42,154 nucleotides of DNA from Lachnospiraceae bacterium (GTDB lineage Bacteria > Bacillota > Clostridia > Lachnospirales > Lachnospiraceae), in assembly GCA_024691145.1 (NCBI GenBank), contig JAILNW010000050.1:1-42154 (forward strand), read 5' to 3'. Under the pieces are notes generated by a model that saw only the letters and a list, made by a program, of their open reading frames with translations, searched no databases and was not told the DNA's origin. Positions 1-15,649 of this stretch are shown in pieces; position 1 is the first letter of the stretch, and every line of letters starts with the position of its first letter. A program made the translations under genes and the position numbers.

Positions 1-675
1 TATTATTTGAGGCATACTACTATCTATCATAATAAGATTCCTCTTAAAACCAGAATGATTCATGTCTGAATACTCAATAACTCCACCATAATTTTTTATT
101 AATTTCATTCTATCTTTAATTTTTGTTTTTGTCTCTATAGAGTTTATTTCTTTTGCTTGTTCAGATGTCAGCCCTTTTACTCTGTATATAAAATTAGTTG
201 TAGTTCCTGCATTCAATAAAGTCGGTGCATTTCCTATTTCAGATTTTATTGAAAATCCAACATTTCTTACATAGTTTGTATGTATATCCTGAATTTGCAT
301 TGAAATATCCGTTTTATCTGTTGATGGTGCTTTTATTTTAGTAACTTTTATTCCATTGGCAAATTTTGCAATTTCTTCTAATTCAAAACTTCCTGAATGT
401 GATACAATCTCTTTTAGTAATTTGTTAGCTTTTTTTTCAACTTCATTTCTTGGAATAGTCATTATCACGCCAGATTGATGTTCAACAATTATATTCTCGT
501 CAGCTATACTATAATAAAAGACATCTCCCTTTTGTTCTTCTCGAATTATTTTCAAAATAGGATAATAAACATCACTGATTTTCTCTAACTTCTCATTTGC
601 TGCAAATACTCTTCCTTGACTAAGTAGTTTCAAAAAAGTATATAATTCCGACCATTCTCCTTTATTTCCTACCAT
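1..675 (-). CDS. Type II restriction endonuclease, HpaII-like (3' end truncated by the window edge)
   Basis: Not in the ORF track because no stop is reached. I checked the minus frame from ATG 675 to position 1 and it is open. AAGGAAAG sits just upstream, and the ATG lies 7 nt after the methyltransferase stop. My translation reads MVGNKGEWSELYTFLKLLSQGRVFAANEKLEKISDVYYPILKIIREEQKGDVFYYSIADE...KSEIGNAPTLLNAGTTTNFIYRVKGL... The NKGEWSE start and the TLLNA..TNF block recall the HpaII endonuclease family, and the gene is co-oriented behind a HpaII-like m5C methyltransferase. Confidence 0.7.
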   Translation of the reverse strand, partial: MVGNKGEWSELYTFLKLLSQGRVFAANEKLEKISDVYYPILKIIREEQKGDVFYYSIADENIIVEHQSGVIMTIPRNEVEKKANKLLKEIVSHSGSFELEEIAKFANGIKVTKIKAPSTDKTDISMQIQDIHTNYVRNVGFSIKSEIGNAPTLLNAGTTTNFIYRVKGLTSEQAKEINSIETKTKIKDRMKLIKNYGGVIEYSDMNHSGFKRNLIMIDSSMPQII

Positions 676-682
676 TCTTTCC

Positions 683-1690
683 TTATTGTTCTTCTCCACC
701 TTCTAATACCTTCCTTATCTCTTTTGCTATTGCCTCAATTACATTTACCGTAACACTATTACCAAATTGTTTATATAAATGTGTATCTGCTATTACAAAT
801 TTAAAATCATCAGGAAACCCCTGTAATCTTGCCCATTCTCGTGGTGTCATCTTTCTTATTCCCAACCTATTTACTTCCCCTTTTATATGAGTTACAGGTG
901 TAAAATCTTTTAATCTCTTATCTACTATTAGATTTCTTTCTCTTCCCATTCCTCCACATACAATTGCTCCTGCCTGTCCGTTTATATCTCTTATTTCATA
1001 TCCAAAGCCATGACCTTTAGCTGCATGTCTTTCTTTATGTCTTTTCAATGTTTCTAAATATGTATTTGAAAGATAATATTTTACACTAACTACATTTTTT
1101 TCCATTATGTCCTTGATACTAGTATCCGAATTATTACCTTCTGGAAATATAAATTTTGTACTATCTATATCATTCCTGAATGCTACAATATATATTCTTT
1201 CTCGATTTTGAGGAACGCCAAAGTCTTTACTATTTAATATTTTATCATATACAATATAACCTATTTGTTCAAAAGATTTTTTTATTACTTTAAATGTCCG
1301 TCCTCTGTCATGCATTACTAATCCTTTTACATTTTCACAAAAAATGACCTTAGGTTTATGATACTCACATATTCGAACAACATCTTGAAACAATGTTCCT
1401 CTACACATCCCCTTGTAATCATCTTCGAATCCCATTCTTTTTCCAGCCAAAGAGAATGCCTGACACGGAAATCCCGCAAGACATATATCAAAAACTGGAA
1501 TATCTTCTACCTCTATTTTTGTTATATCTCCAGCAATTTCAAAATCATCTTTAAAATTTGCCTGATATGTTTTTTGAGCAAACTTATCCCACTCACTCAC
1601 AAAAACCGTAGAAATATCTTCCTTAAAGGCACTCTCAAATCCTTTTCTAATTCCTCCTATTCCCGCAAATAAATCTATTGATCTGTACAT
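683..1690 (-). CDS. DNA (cytosine-5)-methyltransferase, M.HpaII-like
   Basis: All canonical m5C MTase motifs are present: I DLFAGIGG, IV GFPCQAFS, VI ENVKGL, VIII QNRERIYIV, X GNSVTV. The variable region (KYYLSNTYLETLKRHKERH..GFGYEI..GGMGRERNL..GEVNRLGIRKMTPREWARLQGFPD) resembles M.HpaII as I remember it. Confidence 0.95.
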   Translation of the reverse strand: MYRSIDLFAGIGGIRKGFESAFKEDISTVFVSEWDKFAQKTYQANFKDDFEIAGDITKIEVEDIPVFDICLAGFPCQAFSLAGKRMGFEDDYKGMCRGTLFQDVVRICEYHKPKVIFCENVKGLVMHDRGRTFKVIKKSFEQIGYIVYDKILNSKDFGVPQNRERIYIVAFRNDIDSTKFIFPEGNNSDTSIKDIMEKNVVSVKYYLSNTYLETLKRHKERHAAKGHGFGYEIRDINGQAGAIVCGGMGRERNLIVDKRLKDFTPVTHIKGEVNRLGIRKMTPREWARLQGFPDDFKFVIADTHLYKQFGNSVTVNVIEAIAKEIRKVLEGGEEQ

Positions 1691-1754
1691 GATTGAACTG
1701 CTCCTTTATTACATACAACTAAATCATCAAATCTTATCTATTTCCTATCTTTCT

Positions 1755-1783
1755 ATGATACCATTTTCGTTGAAATTCGTCAA
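1755..1783 (-). promoter_or_regulatory. Candidate sigma-A promoter for the methyltransferase-endonuclease pair
   Basis: Minus strand reads TTGACG (1783-1778), a 17 nt spacer, then TGgTATCAT (extended -10, hexamer 1760-1755). It sits ~65 nt upstream of the MTase ATG and directly downstream of the HTH gene stop. Confidence 0.5.
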
Positions 1784-1803
1784 TTATTTCCATATATTTA
1801 CAT

Positions 1804-2034
1804 TTAACTTTTTACTACCACTATATCATCCAAAGATACCCCAAACAATACCGCTAGTATAATCATATTATCTATTGTAGGAAGTGCCGTACCATACTGC
1901 CACTTGTATATAGCCTGAGGTGTTCCAAATCCAAGTATATTCTGCAATTCCTTAACTGAAAGTCCTGCCTTTTTTCTTAATTTCTTAATGTTTTCTCCTG
2001 TCTTAGTCATGTCCACTATCGGTAAATTAATCAT
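1804..2034 (-). CDS. Small XRE-family helix-turn-helix transcriptional regulator (about 76 aa)
   Basis: The tracked ORF is 1804-2160. However, ATG at 2034 (MINLPIVDMTKTGENIKKLRKKAGLSVKELQNILGFGTPQAIYKWQYG..) is preceded by GGTGGAGG 6-7 nt upstream, and the upstream extension is AT-rich junk. Typical HTH_3 pattern (LS..ELA..LG.s...I..WE.G...P). Confidence 0.8.
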   Translation of the reverse strand: MINLPIVDMTKTGENIKKLRKKAGLSVKELQNILGFGTPQAIYKWQYGTALPTIDNMIILAVLFGVSLDDIVVVKS

Positions 2035-2111
2035 TCTTATCGCCTCCACCTTAAATTTTACATTAAAGTATGTCGCGATATTGTGACTCAGAAAAATTTT
2101 TTTTAACTTTT

Positions 2112-2128
2112 TTATACTACTAGTATAA
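2112..2128. promoter_or_regulatory. 17-bp perfect palindrome TTATACTA-C-TAGTATAA (candidate operator), with a third half-site ATTATACT at 2143-2150
   Basis: Read directly from the sequence. It lies in the divergent HTH / paralog-1 intergenic region. It overlaps the candidate -10 of the HTH gene, and the third half-site lies inside the spacer of the paralog-1 promoter. Confidence 0.35.
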
Positions 2129-2137
2129 TTTTTTATA

Positions 2138-2166
2138 TTGCAATTATACTCTCTATACATTATAAT
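2138..2166 (+). promoter_or_regulatory. Candidate sigma-A promoter of the paralog-1/paralog-2 operon
   Basis: TTGCAA (2138-2143), exactly 17 nt, TATAAT (2161-2166), about 50 nt upstream of ATG 2217. TTGCAA is itself palindromic, so it could also serve as -35 for the divergent HTH gene (TTGCAA-18-TAGTAT on the minus strand). Confidence 0.5.
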
Positions 2167-2216
2167 TGTTCAATGTGATTTTATACAACTTATTTTTTAC
2201 TTGGAGGTACACATTT

Positions 2217-4094
2217 ATGTTAAAAGAGAAACTACGCAAACTTACAATTGCAGCATTATCACTTGGCTTTGCAATTGTCTTTACAAACACAAACCCTATT
2301 ACAGCAAAAGCTAGCAACGATAACTTAGGGACTGTAGGTATTACAGATGATGGATTTTCTTATACTATAGAAAATGGCGAAGCAACAATCACTAGCTATA
2401 GTCTAAATCCACATAATGATTTATTCTATGGATATGCACCCGCAAGTGGTGAAAGCACTTACGGACTTAGTTCGATAAAAGCTACATATGAAGAAGCAAA
2501 AGAGATATGTGAACAAAATGGTGGTCACCTTGTCTCAATTGAGTCTGCAAAGGAAAGAGATCTTTTATTTAAAACTGAGGCGTTAATTGACTACCCGATT
2601 TTTATAAAGTCTAGTGTAAATCCTTATAGTCATGAATCATCTGATAATGAGAGCTATGAATTAAGATTTTTTGATCTTTCTTCTACACCAACAAGAGAAA
2701 CGCCCTCATATTTCATTTATAAAATGACTACTTCTTTCTTTGATAAGTTCAGACCAATACGTGATTTTACAGAAGATACAACCTTATTTGATCACGAATA
2801 TATGTATACTTACTATGATATAGCTACATATTTTATATGTGAATGGGAAGATACAACTCCTAGAAACTTTTATACAATAGACACAGATATCGTTATACCT
2901 GAAGAAATTAATGGCTATCCTGTTACAAATATAAATAATGATGCTTTCCCTTTATTAGAAAAATATGGTTCTAGAGATTATTTACATACTCTCCAAATTG
3001 ATGCAAAACTTGATACCTTATGTGATTTTAGATGTTCACCATATCTAACTACTGTAACTTTACCTGATTCACTGCTAAAAATCAACGATTATACTTTTGA
3101 TTATTGTATCAGTTTAGAATCAGTAAATATACCATCAAATGTTAATTATATCGGTGACTATGCTTTTTCAATAACAAAACTCTCAGTTATAGATATACCA
3201 AAAAGCGTAAAACACATTGGTACATGCGCTTTTGCTGGCAGTAATGTTTATTCAGTTACACTACATGAAGGTCTTGAAACTATAGGTGATTATGCCTTTG
3301 CATATAATTACGGTTTAGCTTCATTTATTATACCTGACTCTGTAAAAAATCTTGGAGTTTCAATAACTCTAAGGTCTTATACTCAGTTACTGATTACTTC
3401 AGTGAATAAAGATATTACAGTTAATATTAACAAAGGTAATGGTATTGATATCGAATATACTCTTTATCACCACCATTTTTACTTTAATACAAAAGCAATT
3501 GTTTTTAAATATGGTATTAATGAACTAAAAGAAAATTGTATAACCTGTAATGGTTTAGGACTTATCTTTGTTCCACAATCAGTAACTAATATAGAAGCCA
3601 ATGCCTTTTCCAAGTGTAAAAGCATAAGTACTCTTTATCTTCCAGAGCACTTCAAAGATTTTACAGAAGATGAAATTGCTAAAGTTTTAGGCGATTGTAA
3701 TGTTAACGAAATCATTTTCTATGAATGTATTGATGAATGTATAGACGCAATTATGGCATGTGAAAGTGATTACTTTACAAAAAATACTTTTAAAATTCAA
3801 CTCCGTGAATGCCTAATTCCTCATGATACTGAATATTCAGATATAGATAATGACAGTCAGACAAGTCCTTCTGAAGAACAAGTTGGTTGCACAGAATGTA
3901 CTGAATGCAATGGATGTAATGAACCTACTATTACTGAAGAATGCTGCGATAGAACAACCAATACAAATACGGATAATAAAAACAAACATAAAAAGCAAAA
4001 GCAGAAAAAACAAAAAAAACAGAAAAAACAGAAAAATCAGAAGAATCAGAAAAACAAAACACATTCAATTAGCAAAAAAGCTAAAAAACTATAA
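2217..4094 (+). CDS. Secreted CTLD-like + BspA-type LRR (LRR_5) protein, paralog 1 (Cys-rich, K/Q-rich basic C-terminal tail)
   Basis: ATG 2217 follows GGAGG (2203-2207); the tracked upstream extension from 2166 is unlikely. Signal peptide MLKEKLRKLTIAALSLGFAIVFTNTNPITAKA|S. CTLD-like blocks YGLSSIKATYEEAKEICEQNGGHLVSIESAKERD ... YFICEW (nt ~2424-2852). These are followed by LRR_5 repeats (SLESVNIPSNVNYIGDYAF.., IDIPKSVKHIGTCAF..). Confidence 0.85.
   Translation: MLKEKLRKLTIAALSLGFAIVFTNTNPITAKASNDNLGTVGITDDGFSYTIENGEATITSYSLNPHNDLFYGYAPASGESTYGLSSIKATYEEAKEICEQNGGHLVSIESAKERDLLFKTEALIDYPIFIKSSVNPYSHESSDNESYELRFFDLSSTPTRETPSYFIYKMTTSFFDKFRPIRDFTEDTTLFDHEYMYTYYDIATYFICEWEDTTPRNFYTIDTDIVIPEEINGYPVTNINNDAFPLLEKYGSRDYLHTLQIDAKLDTLCDFRCSPYLTTVTLPDSLLKINDYTFDYCISLESVNIPSNVNYIGDYAFSITKLSVIDIPKSVKHIGTCAFAGSNVYSVTLHEGLETIGDYAFAYNYGLASFIIPDSVKNLGVSITLRSYTQLLITSVNKDITVNINKGNGIDIEYTLYHHHFYFNTKAIVFKYGINELKENCITCNGLGLIFVPQSVTNIEANAFSKCKSISTLYLPEHFKDFTEDEIAKVLGDCNVNEIIFYECIDECIDAIMACESDYFTKNTFKIQLRECLIPHDTEYSDIDNDSQTSPSEEQVGCTECTECNGCNEPTITEECCDRTTNTNTDNKNKHKKQKQKKQKKQKKQKNQKNQKNKTHSISKKAKKL
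3974..4060 (+). repeat. A-rich low-complexity tract encoding (K/Q/N)-rich tail, with homopolymer runs A6 (4005-4010), A8 (4012-4019), A6 (4023-4028)
   Basis: Sequence ...aaaagcaaaagcagaaaaaacaaaaaaaacagaaaaaacagaaaaatcagaagaatcagaaaaac... encodes KHKKQKQKKQKKQKKQKNQKNQKNK. Confidence 0.8.
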
Positions 4095-4123
4095 CCATTA
4101 CATGAGTTGGAGGTATAAACATT

Positions 4124-6007
4124 ATGAAAAAACAACTGTTAAAATTAACAATTGCCACATTATCACTTGGCTTTGCAATTGTCCTTACAAACACAAAACC
4201 TATTACAGCAAAAGCTAGCAACGATACTTTAGAAAATACAGGTATTACAGATGATGGATTTTCTTATACTATTGAAAATGGCGAAGCCACAATTACTAGC
4301 TATAGTCTAAATCCTAACAATGATTTATTTTATGGATATTCTGTCTCATCTAATGGTCATACTTACGGCATAAGTTCAATAAGAGCTACATATGATGAGG
4401 CAGAAAGAATCTGTAAAGAAAACAATGGTCATCTAGTAACAATAGACTCCAATACTGAAAGAGACATTATACACAATATAGAACTCTTATACAATGGTCC
4501 TATATTTATTGGTAACTGTACATCTCCATATTCAGATGATTTCAGTAATCATTATAGATTTGAAGAGTTTTATAACTCACCATTAAAGGACAATTATTCA
4601 TATTTATTGTGTGATACAGAAAAAGATTCCTATGGTGATTCTACTTCCGAAAACAGACATTACGGCTATTTCTATACAAATGCCGACTTTTTAACATATT
4701 TTATCTGTGAATGGGATTTAAATGCACCTGAAAACTACCATACTATAAATACAGACATTATTATACCCGAGAAAATAAACAATATTCCTGTTACAAAACT
4801 TGAACCTAAAACATTTCCATATTTACAAAAATATGAATCAAGAGATTATATTCATACACTTACTGTATATGCCCAGATAGAATCAATCTCTGGTTTAAAT
4901 GATTGTCCAAACCTTACAATGGTGGTACTTCCAAAATCTCTTAAAGAGATAAACGATAAGACATTTGAATTCTGCACAAATCTAAAGACAATAGAAATAC
5001 CTGAAAAAGTAGAACGCATTGGAAAATTTGCTTTTAATGCTTCAGGAATAGAAAATATTACTATTCCCAAAAGCGTTAAAACAATTGACAATTGTGCTTT
5101 TTCAAATACGCTTTTAAACAGCATTACATTTAATGAAGGTTTGATTAATATTGGACAAGAAGCATTCTCTTATAGTGGTATCAGCAATATAATATTACCC
5201 GATACCCTTGAAACACTTGGAAACAATGCATTTATTTACTCTAACATACATACACTAATTATACCAAAAAATGCAAAGATAGTGACTTCTAATGCAAATC
5301 AACTTTTATCTTCATTGGAAATATTAAGAACCTATAGAGCTGATAGCTATATTAATTATGTTCATATTTCGCATTCAATACCAAAGATTCACAATGTTAT
5401 TTTTGCTTATGGTACAATCCGAATGGATAGTGACTCAATTCCATTTGAAAGCCTTTCAAATGTTGTTATTCCAGAATCAGTATCTATTATTGAAAATAAT
5501 ACTTTCAATAAGTGCAAAAACATCCAAAATCTTTATTTGCCAAAAGCATTTGAAAGTTTTTCTAACAAAAAATTGATGAATATTTTAGGTTCAACTACTG
5601 TGGAAAACATATACTATGGAACAGATTTTGACTTATTGTTAAATAACTTAGAGCTAAACGACGAAGAAAACAATTCATTATTTATCGATGAATTACGTAC
5701 AAATATCATAGTTCCAGCAAATGCAACTGCCAAACCAACAGAAACTGCAGAGCCTGTTGAAACTGCAATTCCTGAAAACACACAAATACCAGAAACTTCT
5801 GCAGAACCAATTAACACACAATCACCTGAAACAGTTCCTTCAGTTGTCCCTGAAGCAACGAATAAACCAAACATAACTGCTTCACCAACTGAAAAACCTA
5901 CAAATCAATCTAATTATAATAATAATACAATTAATATCTTTAATCCTATTACTATTTTGAAAAAAGTAATAACTAAACTCTTAAAGTATGTTTTTAAATG
6001 GCAATAA
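4124..6007 (+). CDS. Secreted CTLD-like + BspA-type LRR protein, paralog 2 (P/T/E-rich linker and amphipathic C-terminal tail)
   Basis: GGAGG lies 8 nt upstream, only 29 nt after the paralog 1 stop, so the two are probably co-transcribed. The first ~72 aa are nearly identical to paralog 1. CTLD-like blocks YGISSIRATYDEAERICKENNGHLVTIDSNTERD ... YFICEW (nt ~4328-4717), then LRR_5 repeats. The tail is TAKPTETAEPVETAIPENTQIPETSAEP...NIFNPITILKKVITKLLKYVFKWQ. Confidence 0.88.
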   Translation: MKKQLLKLTIATLSLGFAIVLTNTKPITAKASNDTLENTGITDDGFSYTIENGEATITSYSLNPNNDLFYGYSVSSNGHTYGISSIRATYDEAERICKENNGHLVTIDSNTERDIIHNIELLYNGPIFIGNCTSPYSDDFSNHYRFEEFYNSPLKDNYSYLLCDTEKDSYGDSTSENRHYGYFYTNADFLTYFICEWDLNAPENYHTINTDIIIPEKINNIPVTKLEPKTFPYLQKYESRDYIHTLTVYAQIESISGLNDCPNLTMVVLPKSLKEINDKTFEFCTNLKTIEIPEKVERIGKFAFNASGIENITIPKSVKTIDNCAFSNTLLNSITFNEGLINIGQEAFSYSGISNIILPDTLETLGNNAFIYSNIHTLIIPKNAKIVTSNANQLLSSLEILRTYRADSYINYVHISHSIPKIHNVIFAYGTIRMDSDSIPFESLSNVVIPESVSIIENNTFNKCKNIQNLYLPKAFESFSNKKLMNILGSTTVENIYYGTDFDLLLNNLELNDEENNSLFIDELRTNIIVPANATAKPTETAEPVETAIPENTQIPETSAEPINTQSPETVPSVVPEATNKPNITASPTEKPTNQSNYNNNTINIFNPITILKKVITKLLKYVFKWQ

Positions 6008-6012
6008 CCAAC

Positions 6013-6066
6013 ACAAGCTGCCTCCACGTCTTGCACGTAAGAGACAGCTTGTTTATTAATTATTTA
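6013..6066. terminator. Bidirectional intrinsic terminator between convergent paralogs 2 and 3
   Basis: Imperfect hairpin ACAAGCTG-c-CTC-c-ACGT-cttgc-ACGT-aa-GAG-a-CAGCTTGT (6013-6052), followed by TTTATTAATTATTT. Confidence 0.6.
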
Positions 6067-6086
6067 CTTAAAGATTTGTCCTTTTC

Positions 6087-7739
6087 CTACTGTGGTGTTA
6101 CAGTTATTACCTTGTCACCATACTCAACTGTTACAGTTGAAGTGCCGAAAAGCTTGTTTAAGTTTTCTTCCTTGATAGTTGTAGGTATTACAGCTGTTTT
6201 TATAAAAGGATTGTCGAATGCATCATCGCCAATATAACGTACTGTATTAGGAACTTCAACTCTCTTTGTTGTCCAGTTCTTTAAAGCTTCGCTTGGAATA
6301 GAATATGTTCCAGACTGGAATGCGATAGTCTTAGGTCCTCTTCCATACATATCAACTTTTCCTGTACCAAATGTCTTAACAGTTTTAGGGATTGTTAAAG
6401 TATCCACCTTTGCACATTCAACAACACCACTACCAAGATGAGTTAAACCGCTTGGTAAATTAATCTCTGTTAAATTAGTAAAACGGAAAGCATCATTTTC
6501 AATCTTCTTTACACCCTTGTTAATAGTAACTGTCTTTAATTCAGTCTTGCAGAAAGCACCTTCTCCAATTGTTGAAACTGTACCAGGGATAGTTACATCT
6601 GTCATCTTACAGAATCTGAAAGCATTCTTTCCGATAGTTTTAAGATTTCTGTTAATTGTAACACTATTCTTAAGTCCTGCATACTCAAAAGCACTTTCCC
6701 CTATAGAATTAAGTCTGTTATTAAATGTAACACTGTTTAATTTAGATACATGGAATGCATAATTACCAATCTTATAAAGATAAGATGGAAGATTTAATTC
6801 AGTTAATCCATTGTTTTCAAATGCATATGCATCAATTGTCTGTAATGTACATGGAAAACTTACGCTTTTCATATTAGTAGCACCAGAGAAAGTTCCCTCT
6901 TCAATATTTGTAATCTTTGCACTGATTGTAAGGGAATCCATATAAGCACGGTATCCGTCAAACTTAGGGAAGGCGTCCTTATCAACTGTTCTTACAACCA
7001 TTCCATTTACTCTCTGAGGTATAACAAAATCAGTTGAGAATACATGCATGTTCTGAGGCTTAGAATCCCACTCGCATACAAAATATGAGCTAACGTCATA
7101 GTTTGTAACTAATTTTAAATCACTGCTTTCCCACCACTGGTTACCATAACGCTTCTGAAATTTGTTTGTAGCACTGTATGACAATGCTGCATCATCATTA
7201 GCATATGTAAGTGCAGTATTATAATATTTGTACAATGAAACCTTCTTATCACTTTCTAACTTAGTAAGTGTGCTTTCATCACCAAATAATGTGAAGAAAT
7301 CCTTCATATTGCTTTCTGCTACAGTGTCACGACCATAACCATAAAATGTAATTCCCTCGATTATTACTGGTAACTGCTGTGTAGTTGCAACTCTTGTAAG
7401 TGCATCTTTCTCAGCCTGGGAATCTACAGATATAAGCTCTCCGCCATTCTCTTCACAAATCTTCTTTGCTTCATCATATGTAGCTTTTACGGTACTTATA
7501 CCATAATAACGTCCGTCTCTTTCAATACCATAAAAAAGACTATTGTCAGGATTAAAGTTATAGCCAGTAATTCTTGCACCAAAATTACTAGGTGTAAACT
7601 CATATCCATCTTTAGTAACAAGTACTTTGCTTATTTTCTGCTCCTTAGCAAATGCGCTTGTTGCACCAACTGTTGTTCCCACAACAACACCAGCTAATGC
7701 CATACAAACCAAAATTTTTCCTTTTTTGTTCTTTTTCAT
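6087..7739 (-). CDS. Secreted CTLD-like + BspA-type LRR protein, paralog 3 (no extra tail)
   Basis: RBS GGAGGCAGAG upstream. Signal peptide MKKNKKGKILVCMALAGVVVGTTVGATSAFA|K. Blocks DGYEFTP..ARITGYNFNPDNSLFYG, YYGISTVKATYDEAKKICEENGGELISVDSQAEKD ... SYFVCEW (nt ~7065-7535). LRR_5 repeats follow (MKSVSFPCTLQTIDAYAF.., LNLPSYLYKIGNYAF..). Confidence 0.88.
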   Translation of the reverse strand: MKKNKKGKILVCMALAGVVVGTTVGATSAFAKEQKISKVLVTKDGYEFTPSNFGARITGYNFNPDNSLFYGIERDGRYYGISTVKATYDEAKKICEENGGELISVDSQAEKDALTRVATTQQLPVIIEGITFYGYGRDTVAESNMKDFFTLFGDESTLTKLESDKKVSLYKYYNTALTYANDDAALSYSATNKFQKRYGNQWWESSDLKLVTNYDVSSYFVCEWDSKPQNMHVFSTDFVIPQRVNGMVVRTVDKDAFPKFDGYRAYMDSLTISAKITNIEEGTFSGATNMKSVSFPCTLQTIDAYAFENNGLTELNLPSYLYKIGNYAFHVSKLNSVTFNNRLNSIGESAFEYAGLKNSVTINRNLKTIGKNAFRFCKMTDVTIPGTVSTIGEGAFCKTELKTVTINKGVKKIENDAFRFTNLTEINLPSGLTHLGSGVVECAKVDTLTIPKTVKTFGTGKVDMYGRGPKTIAFQSGTYSIPSEALKNWTTKRVEVPNTVRYIGDDAFDNPFIKTAVIPTTIKEENLNKLFGTSTVTVEYGDKVITVTPQ

Positions 7740-7752
7740 ACTCTGCCTCCTG

Positions 7753-7773
7753 ATATTAATATTATATTAATAT
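7753..7773. promoter_or_regulatory. Two copies of the 10-bp palindrome ATATTAATAT spaced 11 bp apart (7753-7762, 7764-7773)
   Basis: Read directly. They lie in the predicted 5' leader of paralog 3, between its promoter and RBS. Confidence 0.35.
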
Positions 7774-7800
7774 TTTCGTAATTTTTATTAATACTTTTCA

Positions 7801-7829
7801 ATTATACTCCCATTTGTCACGTTTTTCAA
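7801..7829 (-). promoter_or_regulatory. Candidate sigma-A promoter of paralog 3
   Basis: Minus strand reads TTGAAA (7829-7824), exactly 17 nt, TATAAT (7806-7801), about 60 nt upstream of ATG 7739. Confidence 0.55.
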
Positions 7830-7914
7830 GTATGTTTTCGCCATTATCTCAATTTTTATATAATATTCATAAATCCTTAACTCTAACGTGTACAATAAAC
7901 GCATTTTTATACAA

Positions 7915-7924
7915 ATATTAATAT
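7915..7924. promoter_or_regulatory. Third copy of the palindrome ATATTAATAT
   Basis: Read directly. It lies about 30 nt upstream of the candidate -35 of paralog 4. Confidence 0.3.
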
Positions 7925-7955
7925 TAAGCATACTCTAACTTAAAACAAAATTAAC

Positions 7956-7984
7956 TTGATAAATTGCCTTTAGGTCATTACACT
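7956..7984 (+). promoter_or_regulatory. Candidate sigma-A promoter of paralog 4
   Basis: TTGATA (7956-7961), 17 nt, TACACT (7979-7984), about 35 nt upstream of ATG 8021. The -10 is only moderate. Confidence 0.4.
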
Positions 7985-8020
7985 ATTTATGGTTTGAATA
8001 AATATTTGGAGGGAACAATT

Positions 8021-9739
8021 ATGGTAACTAAAAAAACAAAAATTTTAACACTCGCATTAGCAACAATCGTTGCTGCAGGAGGAGTTGCATTTGCTATTAA
8101 TAATAATAAGATGTCATCTGCAAGTGCAGCAAACACAAACACATCATCAGAAACTAAAGGTACAACTGAAGATGGATTTAGCTACACTATTAAAGATGGT
8201 GTTGTAACTATTACTGGCTACAATTTCAATCCAAACAATGATACCTTCTATGGTATGAAAGCTAGTAATGGACATTACTACGGTTTCTGTAAATCTTCTA
8301 AAACTTATAAAGAAGCAAAGGAACTATGTAAAAAATCAGGAGGATATCTTATCTCTATTGATTCACAAGAAGAAAAAGATTCTGCAACTGAACTTGCTCG
8401 AGCTTATGGCAGATTCTTTATCGGCAGCTGTTCAGTTGGTGAAAAAGTTCTTGCTGATGATGATTACGATAACTTCAATGGTTTCAGTTCAGAACTCAGT
8501 TTTTTAAAATCTGAAGAAGGCCTAAAGCAAATAAAGAATAAGTCTGATTATCCTTTATTTTTAACTAATGAAAGTCTTTTAGAAGATTATAGCCGTTTAA
8601 ATGAAGACGAAAGAGAATTATATAATTTCCGTCTTATGGATTTACCTTCATGGATGCAGAATTTTTATTGCTATACAAAATACGATATTAGCTCACCTTT
8701 TGTATGTGAATGGGAAGAGGGTTCAACACCTAAGAATTTTCATGAAATTAAATCCGATATAGTAATTCCTGAAAAAATCGAAGGAAAACCAGTTAAGTAC
8801 TTAGACAAAAATACATTTAAAACAATTGGTGATTATAAACTTCGTAACTACATTAAAAATGTTGATATTAAGGCAAAACTTTATATGATAGATGAAGGAA
8901 CTTTTGAAAATGCCGAAAATTTAAAAACTGTAACATTACCAAGTTCATTAATGTACATAATGCCTAGCTCATTTAAACATTGCAGGTCACTAAAATCAAT
9001 AACAATACCAGATAAAACAACATGCATCGGAAAACATGCATTTGAAGGTTCTGGTTTAACAACTGTTATTTTTGGTAAGAAAACAAAGACAATTAATGAT
9101 TTTGCTTTTGCAAGTACTGAAATAAAAACATTAAATATTCCATCAACTGTAAGAACAATTGGTGAAGGTGCATTCATTAATTCAAGTCTTACTTCTGTAA
9201 CTATGGAAGAAGGTGTTGAAACAATTAAAGATGGAGCTTTTGATTGTTGCAGAAATTTAACAAGTATCAATTTCCCAAAGTCAGTAAAATTTTTGTCTGC
9301 TAATGCCATTAGATGTACAGGTATTGAAACATTAAGAGTTCCTGCTAATGCTGAGTTAAATCCAAGTATGAAAATAATTTCTTTTGAACTTCCTGTATGG
9401 ATTGACGGTTCAAGATACTTTAGAGAATATGGTTCATCTACAATTCGTAACATTATATTTGAAGATGGAAGAACTACAATAAAAACTGATTCGTTAAAAG
9501 ATATGTCAGTAAAATTTGTTTTTGTACCTGAATCAGTTACTACTATTGAAAATAGTGCATTTTCTACTAACTACGATGGATTTATATATCTTCCACAGTC
9601 CTTCTCTGGTAAAACTACTGAAGAACTTAATGCTATGTTAGGTGAAAATGGTTCTAGAAATAAAATCAGATTTTATACAGATGAAAGTGAATGGGAAGGA
9701 ATTATGAATACTCCATTCTGGTTATGGGATTCATTATAA
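8021..9739 (+). CDS. Secreted CTLD-like + BspA-type LRR protein, paralog 4 (Trp-rich C-terminus)
   Basis: ATG 8021 is preceded by GGAGGG (8008-8013); the tracked TTG start at 7964 is unlikely. Signal peptide MVTKKTKILTLALATIVAAGGVAFA... Blocks DGFSYTIKDGVVTITGYNFNPNNDTFYG, YYGFCKSSKTYKEAKELCKKSGGYLISIDSQEEKD ... PFVCEW (nt ~8246-8716). LRR_5 repeats follow (LKTVTLPSSLMYIMPSSF.., ITIPDKTTCIGKHAF..). Ends ..WEGIMNTPFWLWDSL. Confidence 0.88.
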   Translation: MVTKKTKILTLALATIVAAGGVAFAINNNKMSSASAANTNTSSETKGTTEDGFSYTIKDGVVTITGYNFNPNNDTFYGMKASNGHYYGFCKSSKTYKEAKELCKKSGGYLISIDSQEEKDSATELARAYGRFFIGSCSVGEKVLADDDYDNFNGFSSELSFLKSEEGLKQIKNKSDYPLFLTNESLLEDYSRLNEDERELYNFRLMDLPSWMQNFYCYTKYDISSPFVCEWEEGSTPKNFHEIKSDIVIPEKIEGKPVKYLDKNTFKTIGDYKLRNYIKNVDIKAKLYMIDEGTFENAENLKTVTLPSSLMYIMPSSFKHCRSLKSITIPDKTTCIGKHAFEGSGLTTVIFGKKTKTINDFAFASTEIKTLNIPSTVRTIGEGAFINSSLTSVTMEEGVETIKDGAFDCCRNLTSINFPKSVKFLSANAIRCTGIETLRVPANAELNPSMKIISFELPVWIDGSRYFREYGSSTIRNIIFEDGRTTIKTDSLKDMSVKFVFVPESVTTIENSAFSTNYDGFIYLPQSFSGKTTEELNAMLGENGSRNKIRFYTDESEWEGIMNTPFWLWDSL

Positions 9740-9753
9740 TTAAATAAATATTA

Positions 9754-9790
9754 AAATGCCTCTAATGGAATAATTCCTTTAGAGGCATTT
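9754..9790. terminator. Bidirectional intrinsic terminator (end of paralog 4 and end of the fla/che operon)
   Basis: Near-perfect hairpin AAATGCCTCTAA-t-GGAA-taa-TTCC-t-TTAGAGGCATTT. It sits between the convergent stops at 9739 (+) and 9792 (-). Confidence 0.75.
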
Positions 9791-9791
9791 C

Positions 9792-10562
9792 TTATAAAAT
9801 GATTGCCTGTGCTACTTTGTCATAATCAGCTCCCATAGGAACATTATGTGTCCCAGCACATATCTTACTGTCATAACCTTTATCAATCAGATATTTTACA
9901 AATGCATTTGCATCATCAATTACACCTTTACTATGTAACATTTTTGCCACCCCATCTGCAGAGGTATTTACTGCTATAGTAATTGTGGCATAAGATGCTT
10001 CAGCATTGTTCTCAGCAGGTGCTATAGTTGGACAAGCTGTAACAACTGGTGTCTGTGTTGGTGTTACTGTTGGTGCTATTGTTGGTTTCACTGTTGGTCT
10101 TATTGTGGGTGCCACCGTTGGCCTTATCGTAGGTCTTACTGTAGGTCTTATTGTAGGTGCCACTGTTGGCCTTACTTTTGGGGTCACCGTTGGTCTTATT
10201 GTAGGCCTAACTGTTGGCCTTACTGTGGGTGTCACTGTTGCTGTTGGAACTGCTGATTCTGCTGGCATTTCTGACCCTTCAGGAATAAGTGTTTCCTCAG
10301 GGATTTCTGATTGTACTGGTTCCTCTGTTTTTTCTTCTTCCTGTATTCCCTCTACCAGACCTTTTGCTGCGCCATTATCAAGAATATTCTTTATTTTATT
10401 TTCATTTTGTTCAGTTGCCTCAACCATTCCAAGTTTCTTAGCTCTCCTTATTATCTCCTCATCACTTACTTTTAAAGGCATTATAGAGCATAATAAAGTA
10501 GCACTTATAAGTCCAAGCCCCAATCCTCTTATAAAACTAACTTTCTTTTCATTCTTTTTCAT
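9792..10562 (-). CDS. Membrane-anchored protein with a (P-T-V/I-R/A/K) tandem-repeat linker and a C-terminal MltG/YceG N-lobe-like domain; function unknown
   Basis: N-terminal TM FIRGLGLGLISATLLCSIMPL, then SDEEIIRRAKKLGMVEA, an acidic linker, and about 17 PTxR-type repeats. The C-terminus ATITIAVNTSADGVAKMLHSKGVIDDANAFVKYLIDKGYDSKICAGTHNVPMGADYDKVAQAII resembles the v.Ip.G.s...Ia..L...gvI.....F......i..G.y.l pattern of the MltG N-terminal lobe. No catalytic MltG region is present. The start lies 12 nt after the upstream gene stop. Confidence 0.75.
   Translation of the reverse strand: MKKNEKKVSFIRGLGLGLISATLLCSIMPLKVSDEEIIRRAKKLGMVEATEQNENKIKNILDNGAAKGLVEGIQEEEKTEEPVQSEIPEETLIPEGSEMPAESAVPTATVTPTVRPTVRPTIRPTVTPKVRPTVAPTIRPTVRPTIRPTVAPTIRPTVKPTIAPTVTPTQTPVVTACPTIAPAENNAEASYATITIAVNTSADGVAKMLHSKGVIDDANAFVKYLIDKGYDSKICAGTHNVPMGADYDKVAQAIIL
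10047..10247 (-). repeat. 12-nt-period tandem repeat encoding PT(V/I)(R/A/K/T) x ~17
   Basis: Plus strand shows ..actgttggtcttattgtgggtgccaccgttggccttatcgtaggtcttactgtaggtctt... Copies differ mostly at synonymous positions. Confidence 0.85.
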
Positions 10563-10574
10563 TTTAAAACACCT

Positions 10575-11291
10575 TTACTTTCCCGCTGCCACATTCATCT
10601 GCTTGTATAAATTAACAACTAATAATACTTCTCCTACACCAATTCCCATACTCTTTGAAATTTCTGTTAATGAAAGACCATTATTATATTTCATAATAAT
10701 CTCGTCATTTTCACTCTCATATTTTTGTATATCACCCTTAATTTCCTCTATTTCCTCCTCAGTATATCCCTCATTATCATCATAAATATCATCAGCTATC
10801 TCTTCAAGCATTGCTGCCTGCTTTCCCACCTCAATTTGCGACTCATCAGACAGTCTTATCTGCTGTGATATTCTCTCAAGTTTATCATTCAGTTCTTCAA
10901 TAAGCACATCAACCTGGTACTTATAGTCCTCAATTTTTCCCAAAGTACTTTTCACATCACCGTCTTTGTTGTTAAGCATATCATAAAGGAACATTATTTC
11001 CTTATGCTCAACATCAATCTTATTCCTGACTTCCTGTGAATAAGCTTCAAATTCACTGATTTTTGCATTGGACATATGTGCAAGCCTTGTATCTGTTGCA
11101 TCACTTACAGTTTCCATTTTCTCATTAAGCATCTGGTTAAGCCTTTCCTGTAAGGATTTCATCACATGATCCACATAATTATTTACTTCTTCATCAACAA
11201 TTTTTTCTTTTTCCTCTTCAGGGTCACCCATTATAAAACTTAATATATAAATGGCAACACCCATAAGGCATAAAACAATTCTTATTATCAT
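10575..11291 (-). CDS. Single-pass membrane protein with a long acidic coiled-coil and a C-terminal HTH-like (sigma-70 region 4 / YlxM-like) segment; function unknown
   Basis: N-terminal TM IIRIVLCLMGVAIYILSFIMG, heptad-rich acidic middle, and C-terminus NNGLSLTEISKSMGIGVGEVLLVVNLYK. Sits inside the operon between the DUF342 gene and the PT-repeat gene. Confidence 0.75.
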   Translation of the reverse strand: MIIRIVLCLMGVAIYILSFIMGDPEEEKEKIVDEEVNNYVDHVMKSLQERLNQMLNEKMETVSDATDTRLAHMSNAKISEFEAYSQEVRNKIDVEHKEIMFLYDMLNNKDGDVKSTLGKIEDYKYQVDVLIEELNDKLERISQQIRLSDESQIEVGKQAAMLEEIADDIYDDNEGYTEEEIEEIKGDIQKYESENDEIIMKYNNGLSLTEISKSMGIGVGEVLLVVNLYKQMNVAAGK

Positions 11292-11309
11292 AGCATCATC
11301 CCATTTATC

Positions 11310-12914
11310 TTAAACCTTTGAAACAACTATATCTCTTCCTTCTTTAAAATACTTATATGCATACATTTCACGTCTTATGTAGTAATTAGCACCTGATATG
11401 TTAATTCTTACACCTACATTGGCACTTTCTTCTATTACTACATAACCATCTTCTTCTATTTCTTCCTCCATAAAGTTTATTATTGCCAGTCTTTCATGCT
11501 CTTTTACCTGAACGTCCATTTTAAGATTCTTATACTTGTTTAAAGTTTCATAAAGCAGCCTTGTGTTTTTTTCATTTAAACTGCCTTCCTTTTCTTTTAA
11601 AGTTTTATAAAACTTAATAATCTTAAGACATTCATCCATCTGCATATAACATTTGTTCATGGCAGTCTCAACCATTTTAAGTTCATCATCACTTGCCACA
11701 TCTCTTCCAATCTGAAGCACAGTCTGTGTTTCCATAACAGAACCTGCAAGTATGCACCTTATTTCTTTAATTGCCCTTACCTTTCCCCCTACAATAAATC
11801 CCTTTTTTGATGTAACAATTACACTTGAATGTGAAAATATATTGCTGTGCATTATAGTATCCGCAGTGATATTACCATCACTTGAGACATTGGCATTTTC
11901 AATAAATTTTGCAACAATATCTCCACTAGCTGTTACTGCACCTTTATTATTGCCTGTAATACCACGTTTAACTATTACATTACATCCAGCATCAACTATT
12001 GCACCTTCAATAAGTCCGTCAACAAATACACTTCCTCCTGCACGAACTTTAAATCCTGTAAGTATGCTTCCCTTTACATGAACATCTCCGTTGCAGTCGA
12101 TATTTCCAGTAAGCACACCAACATCGCCCTTAACCTCATATACATCTGATACAAGTATAGCACCTTCCTGTATTCTTACATGTCCGTCTATACTTGAATA
12201 TACCTCAAGTCCGTCTTCAGATAAATACACATTTTTTTTGGTTTTTATCTTTTTCTTTTTGCCAATTGTATGTTTTATATTTTTACCATATACATCCATA
12301 CCACTTTTTCCCTCAATTTCGGGAATTAGTTTTGCTAAAAGCTGATCTTTAACTACATTGTTTATATTTTCAATATTATGAAAATCAACCGTTCCGTCCT
12401 CGTTGAGATGAGGATGAATATTCTTGTCGGTATTAAACATGTATACTATTTCTGCATCTTTTCCATTCTCAGGTGCTATACCATGAGCGAATGCAACTGG
12501 AACGCAGTATTTTTTTTCAGTAAGCAGTTTATCAATAACCTCTTCTTCAATAGGAACTGTAATTCCTTCTTCCTTAATACGGTTAAGTACGATAATCTTA
12601 CTAATATCGCCACCATTTTCAGAATGTGGAAATAAAGTTATATTAGCTGTCATATTATCGCTTGAACATGATATATATACCTCTTCTGTTACTTCAAAAC
12701 TCTTTTTTACAGGTAGCAGAATTTCTGCAGGCTGGTTATTCCTGGCTGCAGTTTGTGCTTCTTTAAATCCAAATTCATAAATATTATGTCTGTAGAGATA
12801 ACTTTGTATCTCATCTATATTATTTCTTCTTCCCTTGCCTTCAGCTGGTATCAGTTGTAAAAATACACCATTTTCTTTATGTATAATTTTAAAACATGCA
12901 TCTTTATTCTCCAT
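11310..12914 (-). CDS. DUF342 / FapA-like (flagellar assembly protein A family) beta-solenoid protein
   Basis: RBS GGAGGTGGGAT upstream. Central Gly/Val/Ile-rich solenoid repeats GDVGVLTGNIDCNGDVHVKGSILTGFKVRAGGSVFVDGLIEGAIVDAGCNVIV..., plus a C-terminal coiled-coil. This is the typical DUF342 layout, and the gene lies directly after sigD. Confidence 0.8.
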   Translation of the reverse strand: MENKDACFKIIHKENGVFLQLIPAEGKGRRNNIDEIQSYLYRHNIYEFGFKEAQTAARNNQPAEILLPVKKSFEVTEEVYISCSSDNMTANITLFPHSENGGDISKIIVLNRIKEEGITVPIEEEVIDKLLTEKKYCVPVAFAHGIAPENGKDAEIVYMFNTDKNIHPHLNEDGTVDFHNIENINNVVKDQLLAKLIPEIEGKSGMDVYGKNIKHTIGKKKKIKTKKNVYLSEDGLEVYSSIDGHVRIQEGAILVSDVYEVKGDVGVLTGNIDCNGDVHVKGSILTGFKVRAGGSVFVDGLIEGAIVDAGCNVIVKRGITGNNKGAVTASGDIVAKFIENANVSSDGNITADTIMHSNIFSHSSVIVTSKKGFIVGGKVRAIKEIRCILAGSVMETQTVLQIGRDVASDDELKMVETAMNKCYMQMDECLKIIKFYKTLKEKEGSLNEKNTRLLYETLNKYKNLKMDVQVKEHERLAIINFMEEEIEEDGYVVIEESANVGVRINISGANYYIRREMYAYKYFKEGRDIVVSKV

Positions 12915-12949
12915 ATCCCACCTCCGGTACCGGTACTAAGAATATACAA

Positions 12950-13717
12950 TCAGATTATATTAAGTATATCTCCATATTCCCCAAGGTTCACCTTCATCTT
13001 CTGAAGAGCCCTTGTATGTAACTGCGATATTCTTGATTCCGAAACCTCAAGAATCTTGCTTATTTCTTTAAGTGTTAACTCTTCATAATAATAAAAGAGA
13101 ATCACCTTTTTTTCTTTATCTGTTAACTGGCCTAATGACTTTATTAAAAGTTCCTTGGCCTCTGTTTTCATCATTGATCTTTCAGGCTGACCTATATTGT
13201 TGCTCCTTGCAACATCTAGCTTTACTTCGCTTCCCTGATCAAGATATTCATCGAGTGATACAAGATTAGTAATTTTTGTCTGACCATATAAAGTATCTAA
13301 TTCACCCATGGAAATTCCAAGTTCCTTTGCCACTTCCTCATCTGTAGCAGTTCTTCCTGTTTCTGCTTCGATTTTTTTAAGTGCATTATCTAGTTTTTTC
13401 TGTTTCTGGCGTAATGTTCTTGGAATCCAGTCCATTTTTCTAATCTGGTCAAGAATTGCGCCTCTGATTCTTAAACTTGCATAAGTTTCAAATTTTACAC
13501 CCCTGCATAAATTGAACTTATCAATTGCATCAATCAATCCAAATGTACCATAACCTACCAAATCATCGTACTCAACATTGTAACCAAGATACATGCTGAG
13601 TCTGCCTGCAACAATTTTAACAAGATTTGCATACTCGATGATTAATTTTTCTCGCACCTCAAGAGATTTTGTTTTTGAATATTCCTGCCAAAGTTTGTTC
13701 TTTTCTTCATCGTTCAT
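12950..13717 (-). CDS. sigD: Flagellar sigma-28 factor SigD/FliA
   Basis: FliA/WhiG-type sigma: region 2 DLVGYGTFGLIDAIDKF..FETYASLRIRGAILD, region 4.2 LTLKEISKILEVSESRISQLH. ATG 13717 is preferred over 13723 because GGAGGA lies 7 nt upstream of it. Confidence 0.93.
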   Translation of the reverse strand: MNDEEKNKLWQEYSKTKSLEVREKLIIEYANLVKIVAGRLSMYLGYNVEYDDLVGYGTFGLIDAIDKFNLCRGVKFETYASLRIRGAILDQIRKMDWIPRTLRQKQKKLDNALKKIEAETGRTATDEEVAKELGISMGELDTLYGQTKITNLVSLDEYLDQGSEVKLDVARSNNIGQPERSMMKTEAKELLIKSLGQLTDKEKKVILFYYYEELTLKEISKILEVSESRISQLHTRALQKMKVNLGEYGDILNII

Positions 13718-13766
13718 AAACATTCCTCCAATGAGCTTTATGGTATTGCTTTTCTACTTCTTCTTG

Positions 13767-14021
13767 TTACTGTAAATCTATATTATTATCAGACTCTTCA
13801 CTTTCTTCTTCCTCCTCATCATCTTTATGAAGATTTGGATTTGGATGAAGAGTTCTGAAAATAACCGTTTTTGCAATAGTGCCTATTATGAAAAAAATAA
13901 TTATGACTGTTAAAACTACGACTAAACTATACATCATATCCCTTTTTTGGGAAATACATATACCACAGGCAATAATTCCTGCGATTAATGTTATAACTAC
14001 TGATATATATCTGTATTCCAT
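13767..14021 (-). CDS. Small (84 aa) two-TM membrane protein with a poly-acidic C-terminal tail; function unknown
   Basis: GAGG lies 5 nt upstream, overlapping the cheD stop. Two hydrophobic helices (ISVVITLIAGIIACGICI, SLVVVLTVIIIFFIIGTIA), then HKDDEEEEESEESDNNIDLQ. Embedded between cheD and sigD. Confidence 0.6.
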   Translation of the reverse strand: MEYRYISVVITLIAGIIACGICISQKRDMMYSLVVVLTVIIIFFIIGTIAKTVIFRTLHPNPNLHKDDEEEEESEESDNNIDLQ

Positions 14022-14028
14022 AAATACC

Positions 14029-14514: not shown

Positions 14515-14529
14515 AACAACCCCTCCATG

Positions 14530-15162: not shown

Positions 15163-15177
15163 TATTTACCTCCCTGT

Positions 15178-15639: not shown

Positions 15640-15649
15640 AAATTACCTC

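Follow-up and report, generated by a model that had tools for sequence, protein, structure and literature searches.

Solenoids of the LRR_5 family of leucine-rich repeats (LRRs) act as adhesin or ligand-binding scaffolds in BspA, PcpA and HupY/LrrG, whilst the fold of the C-type-lectin-like domain (CTLD) provides protein-binding or hypervariable surfaces in prokaryotic adhesins and receptor-binding proteins such as intimin/invasin, Mtd and TvpA. To our knowledge, canonical Lectin_C domains have rarely been studied in bacteria, and few ligands are known for the very large family of BspA-type LRR proteins. Here we analyse four neighbouring genes, w1–w4, in a 42,154-nucleotide stretch of DNA from a Lachnospiraceae bacterium (NCBI GenBank assembly GCA_024691145.1, contig JAILNW010000050.1; this whole stretch is referred to as the window). 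An earlier reading of the DNA, made without database searches and referred to below as the sequence-only reading, had described the products of these genes as secreted proteins in which a CTLD is inserted into the loop that joins the N-terminal capping hairpin of a BspA-type protein to its first LRR. We regard the hairpin-CTLD-LRR_5 architecture as very probably correct as described, and the locus as a clear example of an LRR solenoid whose cap loop has received an entire domain.

The four open reading frames (ORFs) to which a single architecture had been ascribed are all present, at the coordinates and on the strands given in Table 1, and their products share one order of parts: signal peptide, beta-hairpin, CTLD and BspA-type LRR_5 solenoid. 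The paralogs are 29–44% identical to the first of them in the alignment and 25–40% identical when compared pairwise, which is far above chance. The proposed Sec signal peptides can be recognised in their sequences by a K/R-rich start and a hydrophobic core followed by AKA↓S, AFA↓K or ASA↓A as putative cleavage sites, with these Sec/signal peptidase I signals being called by reading the sequence, without a predictor. In the alignment of w1–w4 the shared blocks are seen as they had been reported: the hairpin DGF.YTI..G.ATIT.Y, then FYG ... YG.S..KATY.EAK..C...GG.L(I/V)S(I/V).S..E(K/R)D, and finally (Y/P)F(I/V)CEW, after which (I/F)(V/I)IP(E/Q)..(I/V).(G/N)..V and the LRR_5 repeats follow. Two details required correction. 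The distance from E(K/R)D to CEW, given as 90–150 amino acids (aa), measures about 80–110 residues; FYG, which had been placed in the cap hairpin, is strand beta0 of a long-form CTLD, and it recurs before the second CTLD of relatives with two such domains (KFYGFEYNGHYYGLS in P0138). An LPXTG, SLH or lipobox anchor, said to be lacking, is indeed found in none of the four proteins (regular expressions for the motifs; Pfam at E<=1), and w1–w4 likewise show no Pfam match at this threshold to SLH, choline-binding, LysM or dockerin families and no second hydrophobic segment.

Five independent lines of evidence agree that the segment between hairpin and first LRR is a CTLD: Pfam, profile comparison, HMMER, relatives and structure prediction. 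The Pfam Lectin_C profile (PF00059; cut-off 22.6 bits) matches w2 (residues 88–132), w3 and w4 with 23.7, 21.2 and 25.8 bits, the w3 score lying below the cut-off; these matches span just positions 2–47 of the 107 in the profile. The layout is visible to routine annotation, because the precomputed Pfam list of w4 already contains both PF13306 and PF00059. A profile of the four modules matched solved single-domain CTLDs with E values between 4e-8 and 1e-6 (bitiscetin alpha 4e-8, agglucetin 7e-8) and the multi-CTLD receptors DEC-205 and PLA2R with E values of about 1e-13 to 1e-15 (DEC-205 3e-15), and hhalign, run between the window subfamily and canonical CTLD units from bacteria, returned 99% probability (E 8e-18). 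An exhaustive HMMER search of 1.84 billion representatives gave 1,207 matches at E<=1e-3; the best 150 of these are, the subfamily itself aside, mostly long multi-CTLD proteins.

The sequence-only reading had proposed AlphaFold and Foldseek as a check, and both point to a CTLD. In an AlphaFold2 model of the w4 module, calculated from an alignment bridged with relatives, the predicted order of elements is hairpin, beta0, beta1, alpha1, alpha2, beta2 ... beta5, with a predicted local distance difference test score (pLDDT) of 70–91 in the core. All 50 of the 50 best PDB matches to this model in Foldseek are CTLDs (prob 1.00), including Endo180, mannose-receptor carbohydrate-recognition domain (CRD) 4, CD23, SIGN-R1, mincle and snaclecs, with a target-normalised TM-score of 0.48–0.62 for single-domain targets. 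The cysteines of helix alpha1 and of the last strand, which had been equated with those of CTLDs, are invariant in w1–w4 and in six relatives; lying in helix alpha1 (C1) and strand beta5 (C4), they align with their canonical CTLD counterparts and would mark the position of the fold-defining disulfide. Additional cysteine pairs occur only in w2 (C132, C163) and w4 (C137, C217), with none in w1 or w3, and the WIGL motif is degenerate in w1–w4 (IFIK, IFIG, VIIE and FFIG). For the C-terminal half of the CTLD the evidence comes from the invariant (F/I/V)CEW strand with its cysteine and from the fold search. On the basis of predicted fold, core motifs and cysteines we assign w1–w4 to the CTLD superfamily. 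Matches to CTLDs by fold and by profile were obtained and no characterised family was found, these being the two points on which the sequence-only reading had staked its claim.

The remainder of each protein is an LRR_5 solenoid. Pfam LRR_5 (PF13306; cut-off 27.7 bits) matches all four proteins with 118.6–199.5 bits in two to four stretches per protein (E 2e-34 for w1, 2e-59 for w2, 2e-53 for w3 and 2e-44 for w4), and the matches to a full-length protein query in a word-indexed search were LRR_5 proteins only. Similarity to the HupY/LrrG NCBIfam family is confined to the LRR and lies far under its threshold. The AlphaFold model of full-length w3 (pLDDT 78.3, predicted TM-score 0.74) shows high confidence in the hairpin, in the core of the CTLD and throughout the solenoid, with residues 220–550 mostly at pLDDT 82–96, and its best PDB matches in Foldseek were solved LRR_5 proteins, namely 4fs7, 4cp6 (PcpA), 4h09, 4fd0, 4gt6 and 6mlx (E 5e-9 to 6e-5).

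The claimed insertion of the CTLD between hairpin and first LRR fits the lengths of the gap between these two elements. Nine ordinary LRR_5 proteins have a hairpin of this type directly after the signal peptide (e.g. GDFEYRILQDGTAEITKY), and the repeat L.IP..I.G..V comes next, the gap being 6–7 aa in all nine; it measures 140–143 aa in relatives with one canonical CTLD, 271–275 aa in relatives with two CTLDs and 151–179 aa in the window proteins. Gap lengths are hence quantised as the insertion of a domain predicts, which supports such an insertion into the loop. The N- and C-termini of a CTLD lie side by side, with the terminal strands paired, so that the domain can occupy the loop without disturbing the host fold. 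In this respect the window proteins depart from the LRR_5 norm of a hairpin directly before the first repeat: we consider this to be distinguishing variation and no ground for exclusion, and w1–w4 are members of the LRR_5 family.

The link to canonical CTLDs is provided by a set of bridging relatives (P0138, P0143, P0201, P0159 and the metagenomic locus L001) that exhibit the same signal peptide, hairpin (DENGFSWTSDGTSVTITGY) and first LRR (I.IP.EI.G.PVT). Between the latter two they carry one or two full-length canonical Lectin_C domains (Pfam positions 2–106 of 107, E 1e-16 to 1e-33) with WIG..D, GEPNN and WNDW. The window subfamily itself is extremely rare: among the 1.84 billion representatives (50% clustering) the whole module is matched, outside the window, by P0123 (45% identity to w4) and P0124 (42% identity to w1) only, and no member was found among the metagenome matches or in 185,579 species-representative genomes, where the scan was limited to two peptide patterns. 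In the literature we found no functional characterisation of this family, the CTLD-LRR fusion included, in line with what the sequence-only reading had held.

Some of the proteins encountered in these searches have features of their own. L001 (ERZ808028 contig, 928–16227) encodes a giant LRR_5 protein of >2,900 aa that begins with the hairpin and two canonical CTLDs; a neighbouring ORF at 6235–7359 resembles a tyrosine recombinase by eye, and the opposite strand encodes another LRR_5 protein, 1,709 aa long. P0175, a bacterial protein from the profile search, has three canonical CTLDs and a C-terminal segment that looks dockerin-like by eye (GDANCDGKTSVADAV); were this segment a dockerin, P0175 would be a cellulosome-associated lectin. 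P0245 combines three CTLDs (Pfam Lectin_C 8e-41) with a C-terminal transmembrane-like segment.

What sets the window proteins apart is the part of the CTLD that binds calcium and sugar in canonical lectins. In the canonical relatives this long-loop region comprises about 55 residues with WIG..D...W.W..G....Y.NW..GEPN......WND; in the window proteins it is replaced by a stretch of 61–90 residues that does not align to the canonical one and differs in length among the paralogs, with large indels. The sequence-only reading had seen neither EPN/QPD nor WND, and these motifs are absent from w1–w4 and from P0123 and P0124. Because they were looked for and are absent, w1–w4 are, judged by their motifs, not true (sugar-binding) C-type lectins, and the glycan binding that had been suggested is unsupported, the determinants of sugar binding being missing. 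It could be argued that the proteins are nevertheless ordinary Ca2+-dependent carbohydrate-binding lectins whose sugar-binding residues have diverged too far to be spotted by eye, given that the nearest relatives of the same architecture have canonical EPN and WND and that the fold matches are mostly sugar-binding CRDs (mannose receptor CRD4, DC-SIGN, SIGN-R1, mincle). We hold this to be quite unlikely: the four CTLDs, P0123 and P0124 lack even an EPN/QPD-like or WND-like tripeptide, it is the entire long-loop region that fails to align and varies in length, and among single domains the best matches by sequence are to the CTLDs of snake venoms, which bind proteins.

The replacement stretch is the least conserved structured region of these proteins. 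Across eight paralog and ortholog pairs its pairwise identity is 14–32%, as compared with 25–47% for the LRR, 40–59% for the N-terminal half of the CTLD, 52–60% for the last strand and 46–96% for the hairpin. In composition it is acidic and polar, poor in Pro and Gly and contains 16–23% F/Y/W (the canonical long-loop region is 18% aromatic), and it appears unlike a spacer when set against the true P/T-rich linker in the tail of w2.

Variation between strains falls into the same stretch. An ortholog of w3, P0122, is 97% identical and is encoded on a 2.1-kb contig of NCBI assembly GCA_016648615.1 (the bacterial contigs of this assembly are all very short, 1.9–5.6 kb, and it may be a metagenome or host-genome assembly). 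All 16 differences between the two proteins lie in residues 40–211, with none in residues 212–550 (339 residues), and 14 of the 16 substitutions are located in the 89-residue variable stretch 129–217 (Fisher p 3e-10); the nucleotide changes inferred for this pair are of all kinds. The two strains are not close to identical, the protein differences amounting to 4.1% for CheA, 2.6% for FlhB, 5.1% for FliR and 0.5% for FliI. P0122 was compared at the protein level only, and as a proxy for background strain divergence we used a JGI contig (L019) that encodes the exact FliR of the other strain: it shows 91.6% DNA identity to the window, with a synonymous divergence (dS) of 0.37 and a nonsynonymous divergence (dN) of 0.026. 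The identity of the w3 LRR between strains may be read as unusually strong purifying selection, with the stretch free or selected to change, or alternatively as recent gene exchange between the strains, after which the stretch diversified. Gene conversion among the paralogs was rejected as a source of the strain differences, as these are scattered point substitutions and the paralogs cannot be aligned there.

Diversity-generating retroelements (DGRs) typically diversify proteins with a C-type-lectin fold, e.g. Mtd and TvpA, and the CTLD fold together with the tight clustering of strain substitutions (14/16 in 89 codons) could be taken to mean that the stretch is the variable-region (VR) target of a DGR elsewhere in the genome. 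We judge this highly improbable. No template-like repeat of the stretch is present in window positions 1–12000 and no reverse transcriptase match was obtained in the ORFs scanned (most, not all, of the large window ORFs), and a local DGR is therefore excluded; moreover, the substitutions spread over about 230–510 nt, which is wider than typical VRs, the protein does not end with the stretch but continues into the conserved last strand and a 330-aa LRR, and neither Mtd nor TvpA is among the top 50 fold matches. A broader version would have the stretch as a hypervariable recognition surface, either under strong diversifying selection or mutagenised by an unlinked DGR: w1–w4 would then form a germline-encoded "variable receptor" repertoire on an LRR and lectin-fold scaffold, with turnover of specificity between strains and a frozen LRR (0 changes in 339 residues versus 14 in 89). 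This we consider unlikely.

The reading that we prefer, and in which we place moderate confidence, is that w1–w4 are secreted and bind in the manner of adhesins through two recognition modules, of which the CTLD offers a non-canonical surface. In such a scheme an ancestor would have gained a canonical C-type lectin domain in the short loop between cap hairpin and first repeat of a BspA/PcpA-type LRR_5 scaffold. This lineage would then have kept the CTLD core, made up of beta0/beta1, the two helices, the (W/F)IG and last strands and the cysteine pair of alpha1 and beta5, and would have exchanged the Ca2+/sugar long-loop region for a longer stretch, rich in aromatic and acidic residues and variable between paralogs and strains. 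The replacement stretch may form the ligand-contacting surface and bind independently of Ca2+, its probable partner being a protein or another non-canonical ligand on the surface of a host, a food particle or a microbe, by analogy with the CTLDs of snake venoms and natural killer (NK) cell receptors and with intimin. The concave face of the LRR could serve as a second, more conserved surface for binding or presentation, and the four paralogs might represent four specificities. The analysis establishes the ORFs, the architecture, the homology to CTLDs and LRR_5, the geometry of the insertion, the loss of EPN/WND, where variability is concentrated and how rare the subfamily is; secretion, a binding function, the class of ligand and selection on the loop are all matters that we infer.

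Several points weigh against this interpretation. Pfam finds no Lectin_C match in w1, alone among the four, and no sequence-profile match extends past beta1-alpha1-alpha2-beta2, the N-terminal half of the CTLD. Model confidence is low for the middle of the domain, the variable stretch having a pLDDT of 34–61; part of this stretch may be disordered, and relaxed constraint, not selection, could account for its variability. With no recognisable anchor the proteins may be either displayed on the surface or released, and the term binding protein draws on the usual roles of the two folds. Taken to the extreme, the CTLD would be a remnant in decay, with function residing solely in the LRR, the core of the CTLD surviving as a structural cap and the stretch being an unconstrained, largely disordered spacer. 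The low AlphaFold confidence of the stretch, the loss of the canonical motifs and the large indels among paralogs would all agree with this, and clustered strain substitutions are expected from relaxed constraint too if the LRR is under strong purification. We nonetheless rate a remnant as rather unlikely, since the CTLD core blocks are the best conserved parts of the proteins, above the LRR, both fold-defining cysteines are invariant, and the stretch has been kept at 61–90 residues in all six known members and is, unlike spacers, aromatic-rich (16–23%) and poor in Pro and Gly.

Were the preferred reading true, with the stretch as a binding surface under diversifying selection, the locus would be a compact model for the diversification of adhesion specificity in gut or environmental Clostridia-like bacteria, and swapping of the stretch would offer a practical handle on the ligands of LRR_5 proteins; if it is not true, a rare but unremarkable combination of domains is left. 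The natural series from the canonical sugar-type CTLD through tandem CTLDs to the remodelled, motif-less CTLD could show how the lectin fold is repurposed.

Turning to the genes themselves, GGAGG-type ribosome-binding sites stand 7–9 nt 5' of the ATGs at 2217, 7739 (minus strand) and 8021, and for this reason the start codons of the sequence-only reading are preferred over those of longer, TTG-initiated ORFs. Because w2 begins only 29 nt past w1, these two genes probably form one transcript. Their 5' ends (2223–2435 and 4127–4339) share 87% DNA identity over 213 nt, and at the protein level w1 and w2 are 73% identical in the signal peptide and 96% in the hairpin versus just 40% overall, a pattern pointing to gene conversion or to an N-terminal part of mosaic origin. 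Genes w2 and w3 are convergent, and the imperfect inverted repeat between them is a possible bidirectional terminator; it was recognised by reading the sequence and was not reported by a consensus terminator scan. In the region between the divergent w3 and w4, the best sigma-70-like match (TTGAAA-17-TATAAT, 7829–7801, minus strand) lies on the 5' side of w3 and a weaker one (7956–7984, plus strand) on that of w4, and these matches are only suggestive of real promoters, as the number of sigma-70 consensus matches in the region is no higher than the shuffled expectation.

C-terminal tails are present in three of the six known members of the subfamily (w1, w2 and P0124). That of w1 (window 3708–4094) has a Cys-rich patch (CTECTECNGCN...EECC) followed by a poly-Lys/Gln run, that of w2 (window 5606–6007) a Pro/Thr/Glu-rich linker and an amphipathic terminal segment (ITILKKVITKLLKYVFKWQ), and that of P0124 an acidic linker with a similar, amphipathic end rich in Cys, Leu and Lys. 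Speculatively, these tails may mediate non-covalent association with the cell envelope.

On its left side (window 1–2034, minus strand) the cluster is flanked by an HpaII-type restriction-modification (R-M) unit; to its right lies a long flagellar/chemotaxis operon of the minus strand, with its distal end towards the cluster (Table 1). The small HTH_3 protein belongs to the R-M unit and is best read as its controller; a role as regulator of the lectin-LRR cluster was rejected. The setting beside a motility locus that the sequence-only reading had pointed out is correct as regards adjacency, whilst a functional link to motility is not evident. With a slightly lower GC content of 0.30–0.34 as against about 0.35, the cluster looks like a small variable islet between the R-M unit and the flagellar operon. 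The GC content and the set of flagellar genes point to a probable Clostridia-like Firmicute as the source. An origin as a defence system or from a phage was rejected: there is no PADLOC match, and PHROG matches are confined to the LRR region and belong to families of unknown function.

Table 1. Features of the window around the four CTLD-LRR_5 genes (positions are window coordinates; residue numbers refer to the encoded proteins, with signal peptides and domain limits as predicted).
Feature	Window position	Strand	Details
HpaII endonuclease	window start, gene incomplete at edge (first 225 aa)	-	RE_HpaII PF09561, 8.8e-71
C5 cytosine methylase	683-1690	-	1.5e-97
Small HTH_3 protein	likely true start internal ATG 2034, not 2160	-	GGAGG ribosome-binding site at 2034
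w1	2217-4094	+	625 aa; GGAGG ribosome-binding site; signal peptide 1-~33; hairpin 45-61; CTLD ~69-212 (variable stretch 132-204; C98 + C208); LRR_5 ~225-497; tail 498-625
w2	4124-6007	+	627 aa; signal peptide; hairpin 44-60; CTLD ~68-199 (variable stretch 131-191; C97 + C195; extra C132, C163); LRR_5 ~212-494; C-terminal linker and amphipathic end
Intergenic w2/w3	6008-6086		79 bp, convergent; imperfect inverted repeat ACAAGCTGcCTC ... GAGaCAGCTTGT, then TTATT
w3	6087-7739	-	550 aa; signal peptide; hairpin 44-60; CTLD ~68-226 (variable stretch 129-218; C95 + C222); LRR_5 ~238-550; no tail
Intergenic w3/w4	7740-8020		281 bp, divergent
w4	8021-9739	+	572 aa; GGAGGG ribosome-binding site; signal peptide; hairpin 51-67; CTLD ~75-233 (variable stretch 136-225; C103 + C229; extra C90, C137, C217); LRR_5 ~247-572; no tail
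PT-repeat protein	9792-10562	-	N-terminal hydrophobic segment; long run of tandem Pro/Thr repeats of (T/I)(V/I)RPT type with a 12-nt period; Pfam PT 4e-7
DUF6115	10575-11291	-	adjoins PT-repeat protein
FapA	11310-12914	-	distal end of flagellar operon
Right-flank genes, part 1		-	PT-repeat protein, DUF6115, FapA, FliA-like sigma factor, CheC/CheX, CheA, YcgR-like PilZ
Right-flank genes, part 2		-	FlhG, FlhF, FlhA, FlhB, FliR, FliY, FlgE, FliK, FliI, FliF

The C-terminal domain of intimin/invasin, Mtd and TvpA have no detectable sequence relation to the window CTLD and none of them is among the top 50 fold matches; in these proteins the CTLD is C-terminal, whereas here it is inserted in the LRR cap, and no DGR parts lie nearby. 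Closer in sequence are the snaclecs (bitiscetin, agglucetin, factor IX/X-binding protein) and the CTLDs of NK receptors (CD69), which gave the best single-domain matches (E 4e-8 to 1e-6) and share with the window proteins the beta-alpha-alpha-beta core, the positions of the alpha1-beta5 disulfide and the lack of functional EPN/WND sites. Recognition of ligands by a remodelled loop is established for snaclecs and NK-receptor CTLDs, and in the window proteins it would be the corresponding mechanism. The latter differ from these metazoan CTLDs in being bacterial, monomeric as far as known, and in having their CTLD within an LRR protein; of the two conserved disulfides the second is lacking or not conserved in them, and their long-loop replacement has no likeness in sequence to the loop-swapped dimers of snaclecs.

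With BspA-type LRR_5 proteins (Tannerella forsythia BspA, Streptococcus pneumoniae PcpA 4cp6, Treponema pallidum TpLRR 6mlx and the gut-bacterial 4fs7, 4h09 and 4gt6) the window proteins share the repeat family and the solenoid fold, the N-terminal capping hairpin followed by L.IP..I.G..V, the Sec signal peptide and a tendency to form multigene families. The cap loop of 6–7 residues in the former holds a CTLD of 130–160 residues in the latter, and whilst choline-binding repeats anchor PcpA, and a C-terminal domain of the type IX secretion system (T9SS) together with Big domains anchors BspA, no anchor was recognised in the window proteins. The closest systems are the metagenomic proteins in which the hairpin is followed by canonical Lectin_C and LRR_5 (P0138, P0143, P0201, P0159 and L001): their layout is the same, their identity to the w4 module is 31–35%, and GHYYG(L/I)S, T(W/Y).EAK..C, GG.L(V)SI and Y(I/F)CEW(E) are common to both groups. 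These relatives, however, have a full Lectin_C domain with WIG..D, GEPNN and WND and presumably bind Ca2+ and sugar, and they often contain tandem CTLDs in proteins of up to >2,900 aa, in contrast to the window proteins of 550–627 aa with their one CTLD and replaced long loop. The hairpin-CTLD-LRR_5 layout also exists in uncharacterised metagenomic proteins, and what this locus adds is the motif-less subfamily with its enlarged loop and the array of four genes that encode it.

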